Position numbers and translations under genes: made by a program. The notes beneath the pieces were generated by a model. That model was given only the letters and a program-made list of their open reading frames with translations. It had not been told where the DNA came from and did no database searches. Positions 1 to 55,659 of a stretch of DNA of 64,000 bases are shown here, one piece after another. Each line of letters begins with the position of its first letter. The first letter of the stretch is position 1. This stretch comes from a virus (Duplodnaviria; Caudoviricetes): IMG/VR virus record IMGVR_UViG_3300042935_000900, positions 310 through 64,309 of that record; one strand, written 5' to 3'.

Positions 1-683
1 CTTTAGGACCACAAGGACCTCAAGGTGCAACTGGACCAACAGGTGCTCAAGGAACTGTTGGTACATTAGGTGCTCAAGGAACCGCAGGTGCAACTGGTGC
101 TCAAGGTCTTACAGGCCCTGTCGCTGGAGCTGCAAACCAAGTGGTTTATAAAGACTCAGGAAATACCGTGACAGGAAGTAACAATCTTACATTTGACGGT
201 ACCAGATTAGACACTAGAGAGCTTATAACAGGTATCGGTAATTTTACAATAGCCCCGGATGCGGGTAATTATCCAGGATATGGAACTGCTGTTATTAAAG
301 CTGGTCAACCGATAATGATACAAGATGGTGACATGCAAACACCTATGCCAATGATGTGGGATTTAGGACCGGGTAATGGTATAGGTTATCAAATATCTTC
401 TATTAGATTTAAAGAAAATGTCCAAGACGTTGTTTTAAATTTAGAGGACTTTTTATCTAGAACAGCTAAGACTTATACAACTAAAGGATCTAAAAGACCA
501 GATATTGGTTTTATTGCCGAAGAATGGGTTAACTTTGATGAGAGATTAATTGCAAGAGATGGTGATGGTTTAATCATGACATTACATTATGATAAAATGA
601 CACCTTATTTGTACGAAGCTGTTAAAGCATTACGCAATGAGATTACAGAATTAAAAGCAGAAATTGCTTTATTAAAACAATAA
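1..683 (+). CDS. 5'-truncated collagen-like tail fibre protein with C-terminal peptidase S74 intramolecular chaperone
   Basis: Frame is open from nt 3 with Gly-X-Y repeats ([17 protein letters not shown]...) continuing into the 141..683 ORF. C-terminal SSIRFKENV, DIGFIAEE and LHYDKMTPYLYEAVKAL plus coiled coil are S74 motifs. Confidence 0.85.
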   Translation, partial: LGPQGPQGATGPTGAQGTVGTLGAQGTAGATGAQGLTGPVAGAANQVVYKDSGNTVTGSNNLTFDGTRLDTRELITGIGNFTIAPDAGNYPGYGTAVIKAGQPIMIQDGDMQTPMPMMWDLGPGNGIGYQISSIRFKENVQDVVLNLEDFLSRTAKTYTTKGSKRPDIGFIAEEWVNFDERLIARDGDGLIMTLHYDKMTPYLYEAVKALRNEITELKAEIALLKQ

Positions 684-2644: not shown

Positions 2645-2805
2645 CACAATTAGAACACATAACTACAGAATTAAATTTTATTAATTGGACAATAGGACAG
2701 GCTTCTACAGAAGAATCACGTCAATTACTAGAAGATAAATATAAAACAAAGATTCAACAAATTCTTAATGAAATTGAATTGTTAAAACAGAATAATAATA
2801 AATAA
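2641..2805 (+). CDS. small hypothetical protein (54 aa, absent from ORF track)
   Basis: ATG 2641 overlaps the upstream stop (ATGA) and TAA 2803-2805 overlaps the next ATG; [13 protein letters not shown]...LLKQNNNK. Confidence 0.65.
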
Positions 2806-5390
2806 TGGCTACACTTAAGATAGGTACTACAATTGGTGGAAATGAAGTTTTACATATAGGTAACTTTGTTCCTGGCAATTACCCTCAATTTATTGGTGCT
2901 CAAGGTGCAACAGGACCTCAAGGTGCTACTGGACCTCAGGGTGCTACTGGACCAACAGGTGCTCAAGGAACGATAGGTAATACTGGACCACAAGGTGCAA
3001 CAGGACCTCAGGGTGGAACTGGTGCAACAGGCGCTCAAGGTGCTTTAGGACCACAAGGACCACAAGGAAATATTGGAAATACTGGACCACAAGGTGCTCA
3101 AGGAACAATAGGTAATACTGGACCACAAGGTGGAACTGGTGCAACAGGTGCTCAAGGTGCTAGAGGTGCTCAAGGTGATCGTGGGGCAACAGGTGCTCAA
3201 GGTTCTGCTGGAACTAATGGAACTAACGGTGCTCAAGGTGCTTTAGGACCTCAAGGTGGAACTGGTGCAACTGGTGCTCAAGGTGCTTTAGGACCTCAAG
3301 GTGGAACTGGACCAACAGGTGCTCAAGGTGCTTTAGGACCTCAAGGCGGAACTGGACCAACAGGTGCTCAAGGTGCCCGTGGTGCTCAAGGTGATCGCGG
3401 GGCAACAGGTGCTCAAGGTGCTGCTGGAAGTAATGGTGCTCAAGGTGCTTTAGGACCTCAAGGTGGTGGCGGTGCTACAGGTGCTCAAGGAGCTTTAGGA
3501 CCACAAGGACCTCAAGGAAATATTGGAAATACAGGACCTCAAGGTGGCGGTGGTGCTACAGGTGCTCAAGGTGACCGCGGGGCAACAGGTGCTCAAGGAG
3601 CTTTAGGACCTCAAGGACCTCAAGGAAATATTGGAAATACAGGACCTCAAGGTGGCGGTGGTGCTACAGGTGCTCAAGGAGCAAAAGGTGATGTTGGACC
3701 TCAAGGTGGAACTGGATTACAAGGTGGAACTGGACCTCAGGGTGGCGGTGGTGCTACAGGTGCTCAGGGTGCAATTGGACCAGTTGATTACTCAACAATA
3801 TCTGCGCCATGGGCATTAACTGGTGGAGGGTCTGTAACATGGTCTGGCAATGTATTAACTGTAAATGCTCGTATAATTGCCATACCTTTAAATAAATCGC
3901 TTGCTAGTAATGGATATTTTGATATAGGACCTTTTAATACAAGCATCCCATCGTGGAATACTCTATTCTATGTACCGCCTTCTGGTACAGATAATACATA
4001 TAAGCCTGCTAGTTTAGTATTAAAGGCATATACTGATAATCAGATAATTGCTGCAAATTGGATTCCAATCGCAACACATAATGGAGACGATTCTAGTTTA
4101 AGATACATTCCAGGATTTACATCTATACCGCCTGATGGAACTTATACTTCTTCGGGTGCTTCTAGATCATGGGCTGTTGGACCTCAAGGTTCTAAGGGCT
4201 CAACCGGAGATAAAGGTGCTGTTGGACCTCAAGGTGGAACTGGATTACAAGGTGGAACTGGACCTCAAGGTGCAACTGGACCTCAAGGTGGAACTGGATT
4301 ACAAGGACCTCAAGGAATAAAAGGTGATGTTGGACCACAAGGTGGAACTGGATTACAAGGTGGAACTGGACCTCAAGGTTTACAAGGTGGAGCAGGAACA
4401 GCTGGTACTAAAGGTGCAACTGGAGATAAAGGTGCAACTGGAAATACAGGTGGAACTGGACCAACAGGTATTGGAGTTGCTTCAGCTTCTGTTGCTGCTG
4501 GTAAATTAACAATATCACTTACTAACGATACTATTCCTATTAATGCTGTTAACGTAACTGGACCGACTGGATCACCAGGAACTAATGGAACTAATGGAAC
4601 TAACGGAACTCCAGGAGATAAAGGTGCAACCGGTGCTCCTGGATCAAATGGAACTCCCGGATCAAATGGAACTCCCGGATCAAATGGAACTCCCGGATCA
4701 AATGGAACTAATGGTTCAGCAGGAACTTCATTTACTTGGAGAGGAACTTATGTTAATGCTACTACATATAATCCAAGGGATACAGTTTACTATTTAGGAA
4801 GTACATACGTTTGTATACAACAAACTTTACAAAATCAAAATCCAACATATACTGAATTTTGGCAATTATCGTCTGCTAAAGGTGATGCTGGATCTACTGG
4901 TGCTCCTGGATCAAATGGTTCTAATGGAACTCCAGGTTCAAATGGAACTCCAGGTTCTAATGGAACGCCAGGTGCTAAAGGAGATACTGGTGCTGGCGGA
5001 ACTCCAGGTTCAAATGGAACTCCCGGAACAAACGGAGCTAAAGGTGAACCAGGAACTAATGGAACTAATGGAACTCCAGGTGGAACTGGACCTACTGGAC
5101 CTGCTGGACCTCAAGGTTTACAAGGAGCTACTGGACCTGCTGGAACTAATGGATCTCCAGGATATGGTTATACTGGACCTACAGGCCCTCCAGGCCCTCC
5201 AGGAAGTGGCGGCGGCGGAACTGGTACACCAGGTTGGACAATCGTATCACAAGAAGAAATTATGGATTATCCTGGACCTCCTATGATGCTTTACACAATT
5301 AATACTGGTGTGGTTGACACACAACAACCAGCGTTACCTGAAGGAGGCCCGTATATAATGCTTCGTCTTTATGGATCAACGGCTCGCTAA
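2805..5390 (+). CDS. collagen triple-helix repeat fibre protein
   Basis: Four Gly-X-Y blocks (about 2895-3785, 4179-4475, 4560-4730, 4881-5205) separated by globular inserts, including a CBM-like FTWRGTY...Y...[12 protein letters not shown] module. Confidence 0.9.
4641..4709 (+). repeat. 18-nt tandem repeat GGATCAAATGGAACTCCC, about 3.8 copies, encoding GSNGTP
   Basis: Identical copies read directly in the sequence. Confidence 0.9.
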
Positions 5391-5416
5391 ATCAATTATA
5401 AAAATAAATTAAAATA

Positions 5417-5665
5417 ATGGCAACGACTACAATTAATATTAATCAAGTAACAATACTTGGTAAAACTGCAACTAAATTAGTTATAGCTCCAATTTTTTAT
5501 ACCCTAAATTCAACTGGTGTAAGTATTGGTTATGAATTAAGAAACAGTGATGACGCGTTTATTGTTTCAGGTAGAACTGTAATTTCAGATATTTCTACTT
5601 GGGGTACAGATGATTCTGTTCTTATTGGTGCAATCTTAACGGCTTTGTCTTTGACAAAAGCTTAA
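5417..5665 (+). CDS. small hypothetical protein, probably fibre-associated
   Basis: 82 aa ORF after the collagen gene, with A-rich leader. Confidence 0.6.
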   Translation: MATTTININQVTILGKTATKLVIAPIFYTLNSTGVSIGYELRNSDDAFIVSGRTVISDISTWGTDDSVLIGAILTALSLTKA

Positions 5666-5667
5666 TT

Positions 5668-5697
5668 GAAACTTCGTTCTGGAAATTCGTATAAATA
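5668..5697 (+). promoter_or_regulatory. overlapping GAAAC-N16-GTATAA promoter and TATAAATA (T4 late-type) box
   Basis: GAAAC 5668-5672, GTATAA 5689-5694, TATAAATA 5690-5697, upstream of the oxygenase/GT operon. Confidence 0.6.
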
Positions 5698-5712
5698 GAC
5701 AAAGACATTTAT

Positions 5713-6300
5713 ATGAATTTCCAGCAACAAACTAATGATTCGCAAAACTTTTATTGGTATAAACAAGGTTTTACCAAAGAAGAATTAGACAAAATTTACA
5801 ATGATGTAGCTCAGTTACCATTTGAAAAAGCTACAATCTTAGGTGAAGACAATACTGAAGCTATTAAAGCTATTAGAAGTTCTTCAATCAAATGGATTCC
5901 CAAAGATCAAAATTGGCAATGGCTTTATGATAAGCTAATGAATATGGCACTAGAAGCTAATAATTCTTTATGGCATTTTGATCTAATCTCAGTTGATGAG
6001 AAAATACAATACACAGAATATTATGATAATGCCGATGGTCATTATACTTGGCATCAAGATATTGGTGGTGGAAGTGCTAGCAGACGTAAAGTTTCTATTA
6101 CAGTTCAATTATCAGATCCTGAAGAATACCAAGGTGGTGATTTAGAAATGTGGCAAGGTGGAGAATCTGTTGTCAAATCTGCAAGAGGCGCAGGAGTTGT
6201 TTTTATTTTTCCAAGTTACATGATGCACAGAGTTACTAAAGTAACCAAAGGAACTCGTCGTTCTTTTGTATTATGGGTCGGTGGTCAACATTATCGTTAA
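5713..6300 (+). CDS. 2OG-Fe(II) oxygenase (PKHD/prolyl 4-hydroxylase-like)
   Basis: YTWHQD (HxD), RKVSITVQL, EYQGGDL, FPSYMMHRV and RRSFVLW carry the Fe and 2OG ligands. Confidence 0.9.
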   Translation: MNFQQQTNDSQNFYWYKQGFTKEELDKIYNDVAQLPFEKATILGEDNTEAIKAIRSSSIKWIPKDQNWQWLYDKLMNMALEANNSLWHFDLISVDEKIQYTEYYDNADGHYTWHQDIGGGSASRRKVSITVQLSDPEEYQGGDLEMWQGGESVVKSARGAGVVFIFPSYMMHRVTKVTKGTRRSFVLWVGGQHYR

Positions 6301-7322
6301 TGCGAATATTAATTTACGTAGGATACCAATCACAGCCATTTAATGGCTCGACAATTTCATCACTAGGTTTAGGTGGAACTGAGCAAGCTTGTACATATTT
6401 AGCAAATGAATTAGCTAAACTTGGACACGATGTCCAAGTAAGTGGCCAAGTTATCAAAGAAACCCACAAGAACGTTGTATGGAATGATGAGATTTCAAAT
6501 ACTCATTTTGATGTGGTTATTGCTGCAAGTTACATACACTATATTCCAGAACTAGCTGAAAGAAATGTTACTTATACCAAGTCATATTTCTGGGTTCACA
6601 ATGAGGATTTCTTTCCTTGGTGGAAAGGTGAAGCTTTACCAGAAAACGGTGCTTTATTCTTAGCAGATGCCAGATTAACTGGAATTATTTGTTTAACTGA
6701 ATGGCACGCAAATCAATTTAAAGAAGCCTATAATATTATTAAGCCTATTTATATCATAGGCAATGGCATTGATTCATCTACATTTCCAGCAGCTAAGAAA
6801 AACCACAATCATTTCATTTATTCATCAGCAGCTGAAAGAGGTTTGGAATCTCTTTTGAAATGTTGGCCAGCAATCAAATCATTTTGGCCTAATGCAATCC
6901 TAAAAGTATTTTCACCAGCTTATGCAAGTAGCAAAGACATCGTTAGACGATATGGAAAAGCTGGCGTGCAATTTTATGGCACGGTCGATCAAACAACTTT
7001 ACATAAGCACATGGAAGAGAGTCAATTTTGGCTGCATCCAACTGAGTATAAAGAAACTTACTGTATTACTGCATTAGAGATGCAGATGTGTGGTGTGGTA
7101 CCTATTACATCAAACCTTGCGGCATTAAATGAAACAGTTGGTGAGCGAGGCTTTTTAGTTTCGCATGAAACAAATGGCTTAGTGCCATATATAAACATTA
7201 TATCTAATCTTATGCATTCGAAAGAATTGGTAAAGACATATTCTGACAAAGGTCGAGCATGGGCAAAATGCCAAACATGGAGAATGAGAGCATTAGAATG
7301 GAACAAATTATTACAGTCATGA
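6300..7322 (+). CDS. GT-B glycosyltransferase, GT4/Glycos_transf_1-like
   Basis: GLGGTEQ, IIGNGID, YSSAAERGL and ETYCITALE (EX7E). Start placed at ATG 6300 (TAATG coupling) rather than 6273. Confidence 0.88.
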   Translation: MRILIYVGYQSQPFNGSTISSLGLGGTEQACTYLANELAKLGHDVQVSGQVIKETHKNVVWNDEISNTHFDVVIAASYIHYIPELAERNVTYTKSYFWVHNEDFFPWWKGEALPENGALFLADARLTGIICLTEWHANQFKEAYNIIKPIYIIGNGIDSSTFPAAKKNHNHFIYSSAAERGLESLLKCWPAIKSFWPNAILKVFSPAYASSKDIVRRYGKAGVQFYGTVDQTTLHKHMEESQFWLHPTEYKETYCITALEMQMCGVVPITSNLAALNETVGERGFLVSHETNGLVPYINIISNLMHSKELVKTYSDKGRAWAKCQTWRMRALEWNKLLQS

Positions 7323-8617
7323 AAATAGATCAAGTTTACATAATTAATCTAAAATCTTCTAGATCTGATATAGAAACTAGAATTAATCAATTGGGTTTAC
7401 CAGAAAATACGCCATTCTTTATAATGAATGCTATAGATGGTATGACAGCCGAATCACAATTTGGGCCACATAAACTTTATCCACACTGGAAGATTGAATC
7501 AGACAATAAGTGGTGGAATAGAGACCTAACTCCCGGAGAAATTGGGTGTTCTTTAAGTCACATAGCCGTATGGAAAGATGCTTTATTAAAAGACTTTAAA
7601 AATATTTTAGTTTTAGAAGAAGACTTTTTATCAAATGGATCTTTGGCTTTAAAGGATTTAAAGTTACCGACAAAATATGATTTGCTTTATTTGGGTAGAA
7701 ACAAAGTTGATGAATCAATAGCAGAAGACGAGGTTCTAGATATTTTCTATATGCCTTCTTATAGTTATAATTCACATGCTTATGTGTTAAACAAATCCGG
7801 TATTAAAAAACTAGCTGCTTGTAATTTACAGGATAATATTATCCCAGTTGATGAGTTTTTATCTACAACATTTTGTTTGCATCCAAGACAAGACCTTAGA
7901 CACTTATTTGGAGATCCTAAAATATATGCTTTGACATTAAAAAATCAGGCCATTGGTCAAATACCTCTTAATATTCGCCCATCAACAATCGAAGTTAATA
8001 AACCTAAATATGATATTTTGGATGCTTCTGATTGGAATCTTTGGAAATCTAAGTACATCGATAAGGTTATGGCAAGAGGTGAATATGATCTGTTAGTAGA
8101 TGAGATTGGACCTCAGTATAGCAATATCTTTGAGTTTCCGCTATTTACGCAATTGTTCTGCGATGAATTGATTGCGATGGCTGAAGCTGAAAATAAATGG
8201 ACTGAAGGTCGACATGAGTTTTATCCAACGAACGATGTTCTTTTAAATGAATTAGGCTTAGGTGATATTTACAAAAGAGTTATCAGAGAAATTGTAACTC
8301 CATTAGCAACCCATATTTGGAAATTAGAAGGAGCATGGTTAGCAAATCCAACTGATGAAACATTTATGATTAAGTATTCAATGGACAAACAAGGTCACCT
8401 TTCATTACATCACGATCATAGTTACTTTACATGTGGCGTTAGATTAAATGATGAGTTTGAAGGAGGTGGAACTTATTTCCCAAAATATGGTGTTTGTGTA
8501 ACTCCTAGAAGAAATGGCAATGCCTTCTTACACCCTGGAGCAATAACACATAAACATGGTGCAAGACCAATTCACGCGGGTATTCGTTATATTATAGTTT
8601 CATTTATTAGACCGTAA
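7319..8617 (+). CDS. fusion of GT25 (procollagen galactosyltransferase COLGALT-like) and PLOD-type lysyl hydroxylase domain
   Basis: N-half: VYIINL, AIDG, LTPGEIGCSLSH, LVLEED, YDLLYLGR, HAYV, IIPVDEFL. C-half: FPLFT..FCDELI, PTND, FMIKY, HHDHS, FEGGG..F, LHPG.ITH.H, RYIIVSF. Start at ATG 7319 (ATGA coupling). Confidence 0.88.
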   Translation: MKIDQVYIINLKSSRSDIETRINQLGLPENTPFFIMNAIDGMTAESQFGPHKLYPHWKIESDNKWWNRDLTPGEIGCSLSHIAVWKDALLKDFKNILVLEEDFLSNGSLALKDLKLPTKYDLLYLGRNKVDESIAEDEVLDIFYMPSYSYNSHAYVLNKSGIKKLAACNLQDNIIPVDEFLSTTFCLHPRQDLRHLFGDPKIYALTLKNQAIGQIPLNIRPSTIEVNKPKYDILDASDWNLWKSKYIDKVMARGEYDLLVDEIGPQYSNIFEFPLFTQLFCDELIAMAEAENKWTEGRHEFYPTNDVLLNELGLGDIYKRVIREIVTPLATHIWKLEGAWLANPTDETFMIKYSMDKQGHLSLHHDHSYFTCGVRLNDEFEGGGTYFPKYGVCVTPRRNGNAFLHPGAITHKHGARPIHAGIRYIIVSFIRP

Positions 8618-8619
8618 GT

Positions 8620-9045
8620 ATGGAATTTCAAGAAGATTTAAAAGGCAACAGAATTAGCCCAGTTTTAAACAATGGCGTAAAGAATTTTATCATTGATATA
8701 GATGGAACTATATGTGATGATATTCCAAACGAAGAATCATGGAGAATGGTCACTGCGCTTGAATTGCCCGGTGCAAAAGACTCTATCAACAGATGGTACG
8801 ACAATGGCCACATCATTACGTTTTTTACAGCAAGAACAGAAGAGCACAGACAAGTAACTGAAACTTGGTTAAAACAACATGGCTTTGATTATCATGCTTT
8901 GATCATGAATAAACCAAGAGGTGGTAATTATATTGTCATAGACAATCACATGTTTGTGGCAAGTCATTATCAAGGTGATTGGGATCAAGTTAAGACAGAA
9001 GTAAACAGTGCTCATTCAGAGCCATACGAGTTTAAATTTCATTGA
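8620..9045 (+). CDS. HAD-superfamily phosphatase
   Basis: DIDGT motif I, FFTAR motif II, KPRGG and IDN. Confidence 0.8.
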   Translation: MEFQEDLKGNRISPVLNNGVKNFIIDIDGTICDDIPNEESWRMVTALELPGAKDSINRWYDNGHIITFFTARTEEHRQVTETWLKQHGFDYHALIMNKPRGGNYIVIDNHMFVASHYQGDWDQVKTEVNSAHSEPYEFKFH

Positions 9046-9051
9046 TAAATA
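9044..9051 (+). promoter_or_regulatory. late-type promoter GATAAATA, 4 nt before ATG
   Basis: GATAAATA-gatt-ATG(9056). Confidence 0.55.
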
Positions 9052-9055
9052 GATT

Positions 9056-9298
9056 ATGAACGATATTGACATGAAGTGTTTTATGATTAGTGTATTCATC
9101 CACCACATGGATGTTGATATGCTATTTGATTTTCTTCATGAGAGGGTGAAATCTCCACCACCTTATTGGCACAGCGAAACAAGTTGTCCGCCATCAGTTT
9201 CTGGAGGATATGTTATGGTCACTTTAAATTACAGCCAATTTGATTTGTTGAGAGGTCAAAGAAGTTGGGATTTTGGCGAGTTTGACAAAAACAATTAA
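9056..9298 (+). CDS. hypothetical protein
   Basis: 80 aa ORF directly after a promoter motif. Confidence 0.6.
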   Translation: MNDIDMKCFMISVFIHHMDVDMLFDFLHERVKSPPPYWHSETSCPPSVSGGYVMVTLNYSQFDLLRGQRSWDFGEFDKNN

Positions 9299-9525: not shown

Positions 9526-10269
9526 ATGTACGGTTTACAGGAATTAAAGCAAATGGTATTTGTGGACATAGAGACCACTACCCAAAAAGAAACACTACAG
9601 GATCTTATTGATGAGAATCCTAATCTATTAGAGTATTGGCAGTATAAGTCAATGCAATGTAGAGAACAAAATCAAACTGAACTTAAAGACGTTAAAGATG
9701 ACCATGAGATGTATCCTCGAATGGCAGGTCTTTATCCCGAATGGGGTCGAGTGGTTTGTATCTCTATTGGTCAGATCAAATTTGATGAGCAAGGAAATGC
9801 CAGTTCATTTGGTAAGAAAAGCTTTTATGGTGAAGATGAGAAAACTATCGTAGAAGAATTTATGACAACAGCATCTAAGATCTTTGTTAACTATCCTAAG
9901 ATGCAGTGGGTTGGTCATAACGTAAAGGGTTTTGATTTGCCATTCTTAATTAAACGAGCTGTTATTCATGGCGTAAAGATACCACCTCAATTTTGGTTAC
10001 AAAAACAAAAGCCATGGGAAAACTGCTTATTAGATACTTACGAGATCTGGAAGTTTGGAGGTTATAATTCAGCCAAATTAGGTTTGTTAACTGAGTTGCT
10101 TAATATTCCATCACCAAAAGATCTAATGGCAGGCCCAGAAGTTAATCGTTATTTCTGGCAAGGTAGAATTGAAGAGATTAAGTCATATTGCGAAAAGGAC
10201 ATCGAGGCATCAGCCAATTTGATGCTAAGATTAAGTGGAATGGACCTAATCGATGAGGCCCCTTTCTAA
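9526..10269 (+). CDS. DnaQ-like 3'-5' exonuclease (PolB exo2-like)
   Basis: FVDIET, GHNVKGFDLPF, LLDT and YCEKD DEDDy motifs. Confidence 0.85.
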   Translation: MYGLQELKQMVFVDIETTTQKETLQDLIDENPNLLEYWQYKSMQCREQNQTELKDVKDDHEMYPRMAGLYPEWGRVVCISIGQIKFDEQGNASSFGKKSFYGEDEKTIVEEFMTTASKIFVNYPKMQWVGHNVKGFDLPFLIKRAVIHGVKIPPQFWLQKQKPWENCLLDTYEIWKFGGYNSAKLGLLTELLNIPSPKDLMAGPEVNRYFWQGRIEEIKSYCEKDIEASANLMLRLSGMDLIDEAPF

Positions 10270-11828: not shown

Positions 11829-12635
11829 ATGACTTATTATGATGTATTAGGTGTTAGTGAAGCTGCTACTCAAGATGACATTAAAAAGGCTTATAGAAAA
11901 TTAGCCATTCAACATCATCCTGATAAAACTGGCGGAGAAGATACTAAGTTTAAAGAAATTGCTCAAGCTTATGAAACATTAGGCAACGAGCAAAGTCGAC
12001 AAGCTTACGATCACAAACGTCGAGATCCATTCTCTGATCCAAACTTTTTTAATAACATGAACAATGGCGATAATCTTGCCGATATGTTCAATCAAATGTT
12101 TGGTGGTGGCCGAAGAAATCCAAACTCCAAAGGACCTGATGTTAGAGTTCAATTAATGTTAACATTTGAAGAGAGTTTCTTTGGGTGCAGTAAGATCTTA
12201 GATCTAGGTGCAGGTGAATTTACAGTTAATATACCAAGAGGAGTTGTTACTAATACAAATTTAAAGGTCCATGGCCAAGGCCAAAATAATCCTTATAATC
12301 ATAATGCTAGTCGTGGAGATGCAATCATTGTTATTCATGTACAACAAAACGACAAGTTCGTAGTAAATGGAATAGATATATGGATTGACATTAATATAAA
12401 TTGGTGGGATATTCAATTAGGATGTGATGCAATAATTGAACACCCTGAAGGTAAAATGAATATTAAGATTCCCGAAGGAACAAAACCCGGCAAAATATTA
12501 AGAGTTAAAGATAAGGGTATGCATGTTGCGAATGGAATGATAGGTGCTTTAATGTGTAAAATCAACGCGATATATCCTGAACTAAATCAAGAACAATACG
12601 AATTAATAAAAAAGATAAAAGATGTTGCTATTTAA
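11829..12635 (+). CDS. dnaJ: DnaJ-class co-chaperone without zinc finger (CbpA-like)
   Basis: [23 protein letters not shown] region and C-terminal [15 protein letters not shown]. Confidence 0.9.
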
Positions 12636-34329: not shown

Positions 34330-35637
34330 ATGACACAAAAAAATCAAGACAATTCTAAGACACCAAAAATTAGAATTGGCGAAAAAAACAAAATCGAGGC
34401 AATCAGTCTAGAAAGCCTTGTAACAATCACACCATCTGAGAAAAAAGTTGTAGACCTAGATGCTCACAACAAAGACGAAGCATGGTATCTTCCTAACGGT
34501 GAATTTAATTGGGACGCTTTCGAAAACGAAGCAAAACCAAAAAGAACCATAAATCCCCACATTAAATTAAAAAATCCAACTGACAAAGTATTTTCTCATG
34601 CGTCTTATGCGCAAGATTTATACAATATGATGATTGGTTCAGCTAGTGTTTTTGATAACAAGTTTATTCTTGAAGTTGGTAAAGTTTACGAAGGTAAGGT
34701 TTATGGAATTTCAAGCAATTGGATGAGTATCGATGTTGATTATAGAGAATTAGTCTATGTTAATATTGAAAAAGAAGTTGCAAATGATTTAAAAACAGGG
34801 GATAAAACTTCGGTTAAAATCGTTAGAAACAGAAGTAAAGGTGAAGACTTTGTTGTAGGTTCAATTGAACAAGGTGTACAACATGCTATCTTTGAAGAGT
34901 TAATGAGTAATATTGACAACAATATCGCTTATGCCGGTCTAGTTAAACAAATGATCCCCGAAGGTGGTTATATTGTAACTATTAATGGTATCGATTGCTT
35001 TATGCCAGGATCTTTAGCCGGTATGAATAAATTACATGACTTTAGTTCTATAATTGGAACTGATATGTATGTAGTTCCTATTTCATTCTCAGCTGAAAGA
35101 GGCACAGTAGTTGTTTCACACAGAGCTTACTTAAAAGCAATGGTTCCTTCGATCCTCGAAGATCTTAGAAATGCAAAAGATGAAGTTATTACAGGTTTTG
35201 TTACTGGTAGTGCTAAATTCGGTGTATTCTGTGAATTCAATGGTTGTTTAACTGGTATGATCCACATCAATGACTTGGATGAAGTACATGCTGCTAAGTT
35301 AAGAAAACATGAAATTAATCCAGGAGATGCTATTGAGTTTAAAGTAAAAGAAATCATTTCTGATACTAAGATTACATTGACTCAGTTGATCCACAACGAT
35401 CCATGGAATGGTATCACAGAAAGATACAAGATTCCTGCAAGAGTAACTGGTATTGTTAAGTCTATTAAAGATTACGGTATGTTTGTTGCAATCGAAGAAG
35501 GTGTTATTGGTTTATTACACGTAAGTGAATTGCCAGAGGGTGCTATCAAAGATTATGCAAAGAATCAAGAAGTGCAAGTAGAAATCTCAAGAATTGAAGA
35601 AATTACCAAAAAAGTATTCTTAAAACTTATTTCTTAA
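34330..35637 (+). CDS. rpsA: phage-encoded ribosomal protein bS1-like (about four S1 domains)
   Basis: EFNWD, GKVYEGKV, GGYIV.I.GI..FMPGS, VVVSHR, FGVF..GMIHI and DYGMFV.IEEGV.GLLHVSE. Confidence 0.82.
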   Translation: MTQKNQDNSKTPKIRIGEKNKIEAISLESLVTITPSEKKVVDLDAHNKDEAWYLPNGEFNWDAFENEAKPKRTINPHIKLKNPTDKVFSHASYAQDLYNMMIGSASVFDNKFILEVGKVYEGKVYGISSNWMSIDVDYRELVYVNIEKEVANDLKTGDKTSVKIVRNRSKGEDFVVGSIEQGVQHAIFEELMSNIDNNIAYAGLVKQMIPEGGYIVTINGIDCFMPGSLAGMNKLHDFSSIIGTDMYVVPISFSAERGTVVVSHRAYLKAMVPSILEDLRNAKDEVITGFVTGSAKFGVFCEFNGCLTGMIHINDLDEVHAAKLRKHEINPGDAIEFKVKEIISDTKITLTQLIHNDPWNGITERYKIPARVTGIVKSIKDYGMFVAIEEGVIGLLHVSELPEGAIKDYAKNQEVQVEISRIEEITKKVFLKLIS

Positions 35638-54051: not shown

Positions 54052-55659
54052 ATGTCAATTAACATCAAAGAAATTTTTCAGTCAGATAATCTATCTACTT
54101 CACAAGATAAGATTAACTATAATTTTGACCAGATCTTAGCAAACGGTGGTGGATCACAAGGTTTAAAAGGAGATAAGGGCTCAACTGGTGCAATAGGCAG
54201 CATTGGACCCAAAGGTAGTAAAGGTGAAGTAGGTGGAACAGGTGCTAAAGGTAGTACAGGTGCTGATGGATATTGGACTCTAGAAAGTTATACTAGCGGT
54301 ATTCCACTTGATGATCAACATACTCTTTTACCAAAAATTGAGCCAGTATCTGGTGCCAAGGGTTATAAACCAACTAATTTGGTATTAGGTGTTGATGATG
54401 CTTTATATACGTTAGATGCTATTGATAAAAATGCTCTAGTTAGTTTAGTGAGCGGAAAAGGTAGTGCTGATTGGGATGATTTAATTAGAATAAGAATAAG
54501 AAATAATGATGGCACATTTAATGCTACATCTGCTGTAGTTAGATTAATTCCTGGTACAGGAGGTGCTAAATTAAAAATAGCAACTATTGACGGAAATAAC
54601 AGTTTTGAACTTGCCTCTAATAGAATAGACTTAGTAGGTAATGATACATCATTAATAGATGGAAATGGTTTAACAAAACTTAGAATAACTAATTCCTTTA
54701 ATGAAGCGGCTGGTACATGGAATTTCTTAACTGGTAGTTCAATTAATATTGCCGCAAACGGCACTGCTATAACTCTTAAAAATGATGGCAACTCTAGTTT
54801 ATTAGGTAATAATATTTTTGGAGCTACTGGCAAAACTAATCAAATTACTGGTACAACTAATACAATTACTGGTACAAATATAGTTACCGGAGCTGAGTTT
54901 AGAATTAACCCAACTGGTGCTTCACCGGCTCTTAATAAAGTATTAGTTGCGCAAGATACTAATGGTAAAGCTCTTTGGAAAAACCCAACAGAAGTAATGG
55001 GAATGTACCCAATTGGAACTATTGTATTTGTCAATCCTGCTGATATTATAGATACTTATTTTAGTATTACTAATTATTTATATCCTTCGCTTTTAGAAAA
55101 TGCATCAGACTCTTATCAATTTTTTGGAAGAGGAAAATCGGGCACTAGATGGGGAGGTTGGTATCTTTTGTTTGGACAAACTAACGCATGGTATAACGTT
55201 TCTACATTAATTAGTTATGTGCCAACAAATATTCCAGGAAGTTTATTAATGGGAGCATCAGCTCCTGATAATACAGACCTGCCTGGTGATACTTATACAC
55301 TCGATGGAGATTTTAAATCTTCTATGGGTACTCAAGGTTATAATCCACCAGTTGGATATGGTACTTCTTATCAACCTACTCTTAGAGGAGATTATACAGG
55401 CGTGGGTTCTCAAGGAGTTATAGGAACAGGAACGTTAACTAATGTAGGCGATTTATTAACTCAATTTGGTTCAAGTGCTAGTGTTTACGATGTATTAGAC
55501 GGTGCTGAAATCATTGACGGTGCGGGAAGCAGTTCTGTCAATGGTTATAGTATTCATCCTCATCCCAATTTTCATCCGTTACCGATGGCCGTTTATTTAG
55601 GCAGAACTGATTTAATATATGATTATAGTGCAGGTAGTTCTGAAGAAAATGATGTATAA
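54052..55659 (+). CDS. tail fibre-like protein with a short Lys-rich collagen segment
   Basis: KINYNF N-terminus; 13 Gly-X-Y triplets at 54151-54270; YPIGTIV collar-like motif. Confidence 0.65.
   Translation: MSINIKEIFQSDNLSTSQDKINYNFDQILANGGGSQGLKGDKGSTGAIGSIGPKGSKGEVGGTGAKGSTGADGYWTLESYTSGIPLDDQHTLLPKIEPVSGAKGYKPTNLVLGVDDALYTLDAIDKNALVSLVSGKGSADWDDLIRIRIRNNDGTFNATSAVVRLIPGTGGAKLKIATIDGNNSFELASNRIDLVGNDTSLIDGNGLTKLRITNSFNEAAGTWNFLTGSSINIAANGTAITLKNDGNSSLLGNNIFGATGKTNQITGTTNTITGTNIVTGAEFRINPTGASPALNKVLVAQDTNGKALWKNPTEVMGMYPIGTIVFVNPADIIDTYFSITNYLYPSLLENASDSYQFFGRGKSGTRWGGWYLLFGQTNAWYNVSTLISYVPTNIPGSLLMGASAPDNTDLPGDTYTLDGDFKSSMGTQGYNPPVGYGTSYQPTLRGDYTGVGSQGVIGTGTLTNVGDLLTQFGSSASVYDVLDGAEIIDGAGSSSVNGYSIHPHPNFHPLPMAVYLGRTDLIYDYSAGSSEENDV

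Follow-up and report, generated by a model that had tools for sequence, protein, structure and literature searches.

We analyzed a 64,000-nucleotide stretch of viral DNA (hereafter the window; positions 310 to 64,309 of IMG/VR record IMGVR_UViG_3300042935_000900), concentrating on one gene whose product joins a GT25-family glycosyltransferase (GT) domain to a lysyl hydroxylase (LH) domain. The source is a virus record of 64,309 bases with a CheckV completeness of 24%, which suggests a large phage genome, and the GC content of the window is ~28–42%. Besides a helicase, the window encodes tail-fibre-like proteins and a homologue of the baseplate wedge. A sequence-only reading of the same DNA had placed the gene in a bacteriophage, and the virus record with its baseplate-wedge and tail-fibre-like genes bears this out. 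A megablast search with window positions 5400–9100 returned no match in the phage collection, from which near-identical records may be missing. The gene and its two domains are:

7319..8617, + strand: GT25-LH fusion gene; uninterrupted open reading frame (ORF) of 432 aa plus stop, supported by Pfam, Protein Data Bank (PDB) sequence matches, and a structural model

7319..7996, + strand: GT25 glycosyltransferase domain, residues 1–226, resembling the catalytic GT2/CGT domain of COLGALT1 (VIA-align, phmmer)

8003..8614, + strand: collagen lysyl hydroxylase-type 2-oxoglutarate (2OG)/Fe(II) domain, residues 229–432 (VIA-align, phmmer)

The ATG at 7319 overlaps the stop codon of an upstream GT4-family gene (ATGA) and falls where both the Pfam GT25 model and the COLGALT1 match begin. 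The frame also offers alternative starts further upstream, beginning with 7259 (452 aa); a database cluster representative 100% identical to the query has 449 aa, and homologues at 81–90% identity, among the matches listed, have 431–451 aa. The true start may be 7319 or an in-frame site further upstream. All of the motifs that the sequence-only reading had named are present in the translation, both for GT25 (IINL, LTPGEIGCSLSHIAVW, DLLYLGR, YSYNSHAYV, and PVDEFLSTTFCLHP) and for LH (FPLFTQLFCDEL, WTEGRH, PTND, HHDHS, GGGTYF, LHPGAITHKH, and RYIIVSF). We searched the query against all PDB chain sequences with phmmer and built an AlphaFold2 model on an alignment of 55 homologues, down to 45% identity. 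The model had a mean predicted local distance difference test score (pLDDT) of 88; Foldseek placed LH3, COLGALT1, and L230 in the top ranks, and structural comparison was by VIA-align (Z, root-mean-square deviation [rmsd], aligned residues, and identity). A connector of ~30–50 residues, as judged from the model and the structural alignment, joins the two domains. Thus, the observation of a two-domain GT25 and LH protein is confirmed, with matches far beyond chance.

For the N-terminal domain, Pfam GT25 (PF01755) matched residues 5–180 with an E-value of 6.9e-20 and 72.2 bits against a cut-off of 24. With the full query, residues 2–207 matched COLGALT1 at E = 2e-16, whereas bacterial GT25 enzymes matched a short stretch, 63–106, at E = 0.02–0.05; with the N-domain alone, these values were 9e-17 (64 bits) and 0.003 (20 bits), respectively. 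Model residues 1–226 superimposed on COLGALT1 residues 338–574 with Z = 25.4 and rmsd = 2.3 Å (218 aligned residues, 28% identity), compared to Z = 16.6 for the next-best structure, mimivirus R655, and 14.8–16.2 for bacterial GT25. The domain is thus GT25 of the COLGALT1-like kind, as had been read from its motifs. No sequence alignment to COLGALT1 extends past query residue 205–207, and the structural alignment pairs model residue 226 with chain residue 574. The GT1/NGT domain of COLGALT1 is not present, as COLGALT1 is matched only from residue 338 onward, opposite query residue 1–2. Bacterial GT25 lipopolysaccharide (LPS)/lipooligosaccharide beta-1,4-galactosyltransferases (PDB 8xlz, 8xc8) share the Pfam family and the GT-A fold but are single-domain enzymes that act on glycolipids and match the query at 19–20% identity.

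The C-terminal domain matched LH enzymes with similar clarity. Residues 201–432 matched human LH3 at E = 1.4e-26 and residues 265–430 matched the LH domain of mimivirus L230 at E = 7.3e-23; prolyl 4-hydroxylases (P4Hs) matched residues 318–431 at E = 0.006, and Pfam gave a sub-threshold OGFOD2-like match to residues 265–335. Model residues 229–431 superimposed on L230 residues 683–895 with Z = 23.2 and rmsd = 2.3 Å (186 aligned residues, 30% identity), compared to Z = 14.3 for the next non-LH oxygenase (3dkq) and 13.9 or less for P4Hs. An ESM Atlas feature search with this domain found only short phage and bacterial 2OG-oxygenase clusters at 0.93–0.94, one of them auto-named lysyl hydroxylase, which we treat as a lead only. 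The PLOD/LH catalytic type that had been assigned to this domain therefore stands, and neither sequence nor structure scores grouped the two halves with generic LPS-type GT25 enzymes or non-PLOD oxygenases, the finding that had been expected to count against the assignment.

We mapped catalytic residues by hand-counting in the phmmer alignments and took family invariance from the 55-sequence alignment; residue roles are those published in the papers named. Query E100-E101-D102 aligns to the Mn/ribose site of COLGALT1, E435-D436-D437, with the outer two residues kept and a conservative Glu in the middle, and G73, G76, and C77 keep the uridine-pocket residues G408, G411, and C412 (PMC12003778, PMC12987934). 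The DE motif, consisting of the catalytic base D522 and the residue that anchors the hydroxylysine (Hyl) amine, E523 (PMC12987934), is kept and invariant as D178 and E179, and Y150 keeps the Tyr of the COLGALT1 YW motif (Y494). In the LH domain, the Fe triad of LH3 (H667/D669/H719) and its 2OG-binding residues (Y656/R729; PMC6082870, PMC5802723) are kept as H364/D366/H413 and Y353/R423, all invariant. Across the 55 homologues, every kept catalytic residue is invariant except G73 (and the conservative E101). This retention of the metal, 2OG, and UDP-sugar ligands and of the base, nearly all of them invariant, indicates selection on catalysis. LH3 forms a tail-to-tail dimer in which Leu715 is inserted into an aromatic pocket (PMC6082870); by sequence alignment, the corresponding residues in the query are L715→I409, F673→F370, F639→W334, Y642→A339, and T672→Y369.

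The closest precedent is mimivirus L230 (895 aa), whose N-domain (residues 1–194) is 27.7% identical to human GLT25D1 and carries an E106-D107-D108 motif, and whose C-terminal LH domain spans residues 537–895 (PMC9614988). Both activities of L230, which the sequence-only reading had named as a bifunctional enzyme, have been demonstrated experimentally, and the sugar transferred is glucose (Glc), not galactose (Gal; PMC9614988). Because L230 already has an LH domain behind its GLT25D1-like N-domain, the phage enzyme is a shortened L230-type protein rather than a new domain pairing. The two enzymes share the order of domains, the fold of the LH domain, and an acidic triplet at the equivalent place, and mimivirus and the phage both encode collagen-like proteins. 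The phage enzyme differs in lacking the central ~340 residues, where metagenomic L230-type relatives carry a PLOD-type glycosyltransferase (GT_PLOD) domain, in its bacterial rather than amoebal host, in the placement of its LH domain across a well-supported branch from L230-type proteins (below), and in its sugar, which would be Gal or Glc where L230 uses UDP-Glc. The GT25 domain of one L230-type metagenomic protein (P0254) is 30% identical to the phage N-domain and retains the Trp of the YW motif.

Human LH3/PLOD3 and GLT25D1/COLGALT1 are the closest solved relatives of the phage LH and GT25 halves, respectively, and share with them the HxD...H triad, the 2OG-binding Arg and Tyr, the EDD-type Mn site, and the DE base and anchor. 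The human pathway runs from Lys to Hyl to Gal-Hyl to Glc-Gal-Hyl on separate polypeptides that form a complex in the lumen of the endoplasmic reticulum, whereas the phage protein is a single chain without the COLGALT1 GT1 domain, the LH3 GT and AC domains, or a signal-peptide context.

The fusion gene is accompanied by the following genes and ORFs:

2805..5390, + strand: collagen-like (Gly-X-Y) protein, 861 aa, probably a tail fibre and the candidate substrate (Pfam Collagen, E = 1.4e-56; PHROG tail-fibre families)

5417..5665, + strand: 82-aa ORF between the fibre gene and the enzyme genes (ORF only)

5713..6300, + strand: 2OG-Fe(II) oxygenase of PKHD/P4Hc type, 195 aa (Pfam 2OG-FeII_Oxy_3, E = 4e-14)

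6300..7322, + strand: GT4-family (GT-B) glycosyltransferase (Pfam Glyco_trans_1_4, Glyco_transf_4, Glycos_transf_1)

8620..9045, + strand: HAD-superfamily phosphatase-like protein, 141 aa (Pfam LNS2/Acid_phosphat_B)

54052..55659, + strand: 535-aa ORF, a possible further substrate (collagen-like run of ~14 triplets, 5 with Lys at Y)

The oxygenase, GT4, GT25-LH, and HAD-like genes form a tightly coupled operon. The longest ORF of the GT4 gene begins at 6273, but alignment and sequence point to 6300 as the likely start, with an ATG that shares bases with the oxygenase stop (TAATG); the GT4 stop overlaps the GT25-LH start as ATGA, and the HAD-like gene starts 2 nt past the GT25-LH stop. Homologues of the HAD-like gene occur in 19 of 80 related loci, mostly directly downstream. 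The 82-aa ORF has no Pfam or PHROG match and no homologue in these 80 loci. A complex prediction for the GT4 and GT25-LH proteins scored 0.00, which is evidence neither for nor against an interaction. The best PDB relatives of the 195-aa oxygenase are PKHD-type hydroxylases (E = 7e-7), making it a candidate second hydroxylase.

The 861-aa collagen-like protein is encoded ~2 kb upstream of the GT25-LH gene and contains 188 Gly-X-Y triplets. Nine of its 15 Lys residues lie inside these runs, all 9 at Y and 0 at X, in contexts such as G-A-K-G-D and G-D-K-G-A, and Pro occupies X 40 times and Y 17 times. LH enzymes hydroxylate Lys at the Y position of Gly-X-Y. In bacterial collagen-like proteins the commonest Y residue is Thr, according to a published table (PMC8968730). 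The window also holds, at 3–683 (+ strand) and cut by the window start, the C-terminal part of a fibre-like protein with a Lys-free collagen run of 13 triplets and a weak match to Peptidase_S74, the endosialidase chaperone family, which at 21.3 bits stays below the cut-off of 22.

To place the gene among its relatives, a word-indexed protein search gave 465 clusters at E ≤ 1e-5 among 2981 candidates; the best 120 of these had query coverage of at least 95% and lengths of 423–466 aa. Relatives are common in marine phage contigs, and in IMG/VR 235 of 253 pattern matches encode one. Gene neighbourhoods were counted for the best 80 of the 235 loci, grouped at ≥ 90% identity into 36 clusters, with a collagen-like ORF scored if it had at least 20 triplets. 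Such an ORF was present in the examined flank of 22 of the 36 clusters, and in 13 of the 18 with at least 5 kb on both sides. A GT4 homologue accompanied the fusion gene in 33 of 36 clusters, as a separate neighbour in 22 and within the same open frame in 11, and a homologue of the PKHD-type oxygenase lay beside it in 20. Across the 43 distinct collagen-like ORFs neighbouring these genes (L003–L082), there are 1025 Lys residues at Y and 18 at X, and 1297 Pro residues at X and 131 at Y. Classical prolyl 4-hydroxylation acts at Y and would need the opposite placement of Pro, so it does not account for the co-occurring PKHD-type oxygenase; with solved relatives that are PKHD-type as well, we rejected a collagen prolyl 4-hydroxylase as the identity of the 195-aa protein.

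Linkage to collagen-like genes recurs in at least 3 gene orders, and cultured phages that are unrelated show it too. Relatives of the enzyme are carried by the cultured Synechococcus phages S-PRM1 and S-8S55, among others. Synechococcus phage S-CAM9 (AOV60634.1, 613 aa) and Roseobacter phage CRP-6 (gp58, 589 aa) encode GT25-GT_PLOD-LH proteins that are annotated 'hypothetical protein' and are ~28–30% identical to the query by tblastn. The S-CAM9 gene is downstream of a tail-fibre gene whose product has 59 triplets with 22 Lys at Y and none at X, and gp58 of CRP-6 lies two genes after tail-fibre gene gp60, with 99 triplets, 26 Lys at Y, and none at X. Both proteins carry a PLOD-type GT between GT25 and LH, whereas the phage in the window has a separate upstream GT4 (GT-B) gene. 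One IMG/VR relative at 45% identity (L011, 7880–9182 and 4725–6581) shows a further arrangement, in which two sulfotransferase-family genes and a GT2 gene precede GT25-LH and a collagen-repeat protein and a methyltransferase follow it; from sequence, this gene set hints at extra chemistry, such as sulfation, on phage fibres.

Fusion to a second glycosyltransferase is also recurrent. A search among longer proteins found 20 clusters of 776–858 aa with GT4-GT25-LH architecture, most of which combined GT-B domains (PF00534, PF13439, PF13692) with GT25 and OGFOD2-like matches. In these triple fusions from uncultured phages (~740–860 aa), the N-domain is homologous to the GT4 protein of the window and the rest to the query, in one polypeptide rather than two translationally coupled genes. 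Ten long metagenomic relatives had an N-terminal GT25 match in 10 of 10 and a C-terminal 2OG-oxygenase/OGFOD2-like match in 9 of 10, with GT_PLOD (PF25342) between them significant in 8, weak and sub-threshold in 1, and absent in 1. An exhaustive HMMER search with residues 201–432 returned 2361 representatives at E ≤ 1e-3, of which 621 were at ≤ 1e-10 and 77 at ≤ 1e-30. We assigned architecture classes to the best 150 of the 2361, plus the window protein, with four home-made profiles:

LH only (fragments and unknown N-termini included): 75

GT25-LH: 24

GT4-GT25-LH: 21 (plus 2 with a split GT4 match)

GT25-GT_PLOD-LH: 19 (plus 2 variants)

GT_PLOD-LH: 5

GT4-LH: 2

LH-LH: 1

A second glycosyltransferase is thus almost always attached or adjacent, being a GT-B enzyme in some lineages and a PLOD-type GT-A enzyme in others, and it is mainly on these grounds that we infer a second glycosylation step.

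A FastTree analysis of 144 LH domains split them into 56 and 88 rows at 99% local support. For a second LH tree (IQ-TREE quick run, 86 rows, LG+G4, Shimodaira–Hasegawa-like approximate likelihood-ratio test [SH-aLRT] only, unrooted), we dropped 69 LH-only, unknown-N-terminus, or LH-LH rows and added 11 named metazoan PLODs. One side of a branch with 99% SH-aLRT support held the 11 metazoan PLODs, 19 GT25-GT_PLOD-LH proteins, 6 long GT25-LH proteins, and 1 GT_PLOD-LH protein; the other held 23 GT4-GT25-LH proteins, 18 short GT25-LH proteins including that of the window, 2 GT4-LH, 4 GT_PLOD-LH, and 2 GT25-GT_PLOD-LH proteins. The metazoan PLODs themselves make up one side of a further branch with 99% support. 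When 66 of these proteins were placed on a tree of their GT25 domains, 3 changes of the LH-side label sufficed compared to a shuffled mean of 19, and 0 of 500 shuffles gave a value as low; thus, the GT25 and LH domains have for the most part moved as a pair, a conclusion that calls for the usual caution because relatives share labels. Because both trees are unrooted, they give no direction of descent or origin. A phylogeny of each domain against animal, giant-virus, and bacterial enzymes had been proposed; the LH tree places the window protein opposite the metazoan PLODs and L230-type proteins, and the GT25 tree covers the 66 proteins above. Three metagenomic proteins of 673–983 aa (P0203, P0190, and P0219) have an N-terminal GT_PLOD and a C-terminal LH domain and no GT25; in the tree, the LH domains of these proteins fall with those of the phages and not with metazoan PLODs.

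Taken together, sequence, fold, catalytic residues, and genomic context support the interpretation first drawn from the sequence, and the enzyme, from a marine bacteriophage, is part of a recurrent, putative collagen-fibre modification cassette. We consider it probable that the gene product is a bifunctional enzyme that modifies collagen in the cytoplasm, an L230-type protein of which only the two catalytic ends remain. The LH domain would hydroxylate Lys in X-Lys-Gly of the phage's own collagen-like fibre protein or proteins to 5-hydroxylysine before the chains fold into a triple helix, and the GT25 domain, an inverting, Mn-dependent GT-A enzyme, would move a hexose, Gal or Glc, from a UDP-sugar onto the new hydroxyl. 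The translationally coupled GT4 enzyme would most likely extend or complement this glycan, and the neighbouring PKHD-type oxygenase may add further hydroxylation. L230 co-expressed in E. coli makes hydroxylysine (PMC9546862), and the bacterial cytoplasm can therefore support this chemistry. The data directly show the identity of the domains, the conserved catalytic residues, the operon, and the recurring linkage to collagen-like genes and fusion with GT4 or GT_PLOD domains; we infer the enzymatic activities, the substrate, the sugar, and a biological role in fibre stability, protease resistance, or receptor binding. The results suggest that phages decorate their own fibres as animals decorate collagen. 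What had been proposed as a minimal bifunctional enzyme thus gains an upstream collagen-like gene with Lys at Y and a linkage that recurs; the pairing of COLGALT and PLOD domains proved not to be new.

Several observations weigh against this interpretation. COLGALT1 W495 stacks on hydroxylysine and the W495A mutant is inactive (PMC12987934); the query has N151 at this position, and Asn is also the family consensus. K470, in the Hyl-Gly cleft of COLGALT1, is replaced by N128, and R351, R354, and the lid loop (Y561–E580) are not alignable by sequence. In COLGALT1, this loop, with S569 and T571, becomes ordered upon UDP binding; the lid-region stretch of the query (215–235) has low pLDDT, with Q214 invariant and S222 nearly so in the 55-sequence alignment. 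LH3 has C691 in its 2OG pocket, a second Fe site formed by H595, D597, D611, and H613, and a capping loop at 590–610 (PMC6082870). The query has T385 at the C691 position and a capping loop that is 9 residues shorter, and of the four second-site Fe ligands it keeps two (H595→H299 and D611→D306) and lacks two (D597→gap and H613→L308). At a predicted template modelling score (pTM) of 0.55, the mutual orientation of the GT25 and LH domains is not predicted by the model. Among the 36 clusters, 14 have no collagen-like ORF in the examined flank, and in a PF01391 search of 5 whole records of this kind, 4 had collagen-repeat genes elsewhere on the contig and 1 had no match at all, PF01391 also matching in 4 of 14 control bacterial genomes. 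We also looked for greater Lys-at-Y richness close to the enzyme gene and rejected it (near 13.3%, distant 15.7%; Mann-Whitney p = 0.42). Lysine generally prefers the Y position in collagens, so the Y bias of the neighbouring ORFs is supportive without being specific proof.

A bolder proposal, which we advance tentatively and think has less than an even chance of being right, is that phages hold a complete, self-contained collagen-Lys pathway, active in the bacterial cytoplasm, for decorating tail fibres with glycosylated hydroxylysine. It would consist of LH, Hyl hexosyltransferase, and a second GT (GT-B or PLOD-type), split or fused by lineage, and phage GT25-LH would be an old sister lineage, possibly the source, of the giant-virus module and of the catalytic domains in metazoan PLOD and COLGALT. 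Hydroxylysine-linked collagen glycosylation is regarded as an animal trait with mimivirus as the sole viral exception, and a literature search, with subscription journals outside its coverage, found no paper on lysyl hydroxylase or hydroxylysine glycosylation in bacteriophages. A BFVD entry from an 'uncultured Caudovirales phage' is auto-named procollagen-lysine 5-dioxygenase. Iyer et al. 2010 predicted that bacterial dioxygenases of other families modify collagen-like and tail-collar proteins. A 2022 review of prokaryotic collagen-like proteins describes bacterial ones as mostly without hydroxylation and glycosylation and phage collagens as only ~18 residues long (PMC8968730). If the phage enzymes act as proposed, long collagen-like tail fibres would be modified in this way by many marine phages, among them cultured ones of Synechococcus and Roseobacter, and glycosyltransferases of host-recognition regions, now read as LPS modifiers (PMC7029224), would need reinterpreting. 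The phage proteins would also provide a well-populated outgroup for tracing the source of the metazoan PLOD and COLGALT catalytic domains, and a 432-aa enzyme, suited to bacteria, with which to produce recombinant collagen that is hydroxylated and glycosylated, a use for which mimiviral enzymes have been proposed (PMC9546862).

It is conceivable, and in our judgment improbable, that only the hydroxylase half acts on collagen-like proteins and that the GT25 domain glycosylates host LPS, other surface glycans, or phage Ser/Thr. Source annotations of relatives read 'GR25 family glycosyltransferase involved in LPS biosynthesis', the pelagimyophage paper interprets glycosyltransferases of the host-recognition cluster as O-chain modifiers (PMC7029224), and the loss of the Hyl-stacking Trp and of K470 would fit another acceptor. 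COLGALT1 is, however, the closest relative by a wide margin in both sequence (64 and 20 bits) and structure (Z of 25.4 and 16.2), the base and the Hyl-amine anchor are invariant as D178 and E179, several architectures join GT25 and LH covalently in one chain, and the deep split of the LH tree corresponds to just 3 changes on the GT25 tree.

We regard as equally unlikely that the enzyme modifies non-collagen targets, such as host translation or envelope proteins during takeover, and that its linkage to collagen genes is incidental to residence in the tail-fibre/host-recognition region. The clusters without a flanking collagen-like ORF favor such a role; in the largest of them (represented by L039), a 760-aa GT4-GT25-LH-type protein is encoded within a T4-like structural region, between capsid/PhoH and tail-sheath genes, and several related 2OG oxygenases act on translation proteins (such as bacterial P4H on EF-Tu, and Tpa1/OGFOD1). 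The LH-type domain nevertheless scores 9 Z units above those oxygenases, most of the contigs searched whole carry collagen-like genes elsewhere, and the linkage recurs across gene orders and unrelated cultured phages. It is very improbable that catalysis has been lost in either domain, or in both, and that the protein instead binds collagen as a chaperone or scaffold, like COLGALT1 GT1 and the LH3 AC domain: the lost W495 equivalent, shorter capping loop, and incomplete second Fe site would fit, but the metal, 2OG, and UDP-sugar ligands and the base are kept and, G73 aside, invariant among the 55 homologues.

Other genes in the window lie outside the cassette. Downstream of it, at 9526–10269 (+ strand), is a gene for a PolB-exonuclease-like 3'-5' exonuclease (DNA_pol_B_exo2); a homologue lies at a similar distance in 22 of 80 related loci, which indicates a conserved genome backbone. 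At 11829–12635 (+ strand), the phage encodes a 268-aa DnaJ-like co-chaperone that has both a J domain and a DnaJ C-terminal domain. Positions 34330–35637 (+ strand) are a phage-encoded ribosomal protein S1-like gene, whose 435-aa product has S1 RNA-binding domains (Pfam S1, E = 1.6e-19) and whose best phage relatives by tblastn are in uncultured 'huge' phages of 462–735 kb and in Lak phages.

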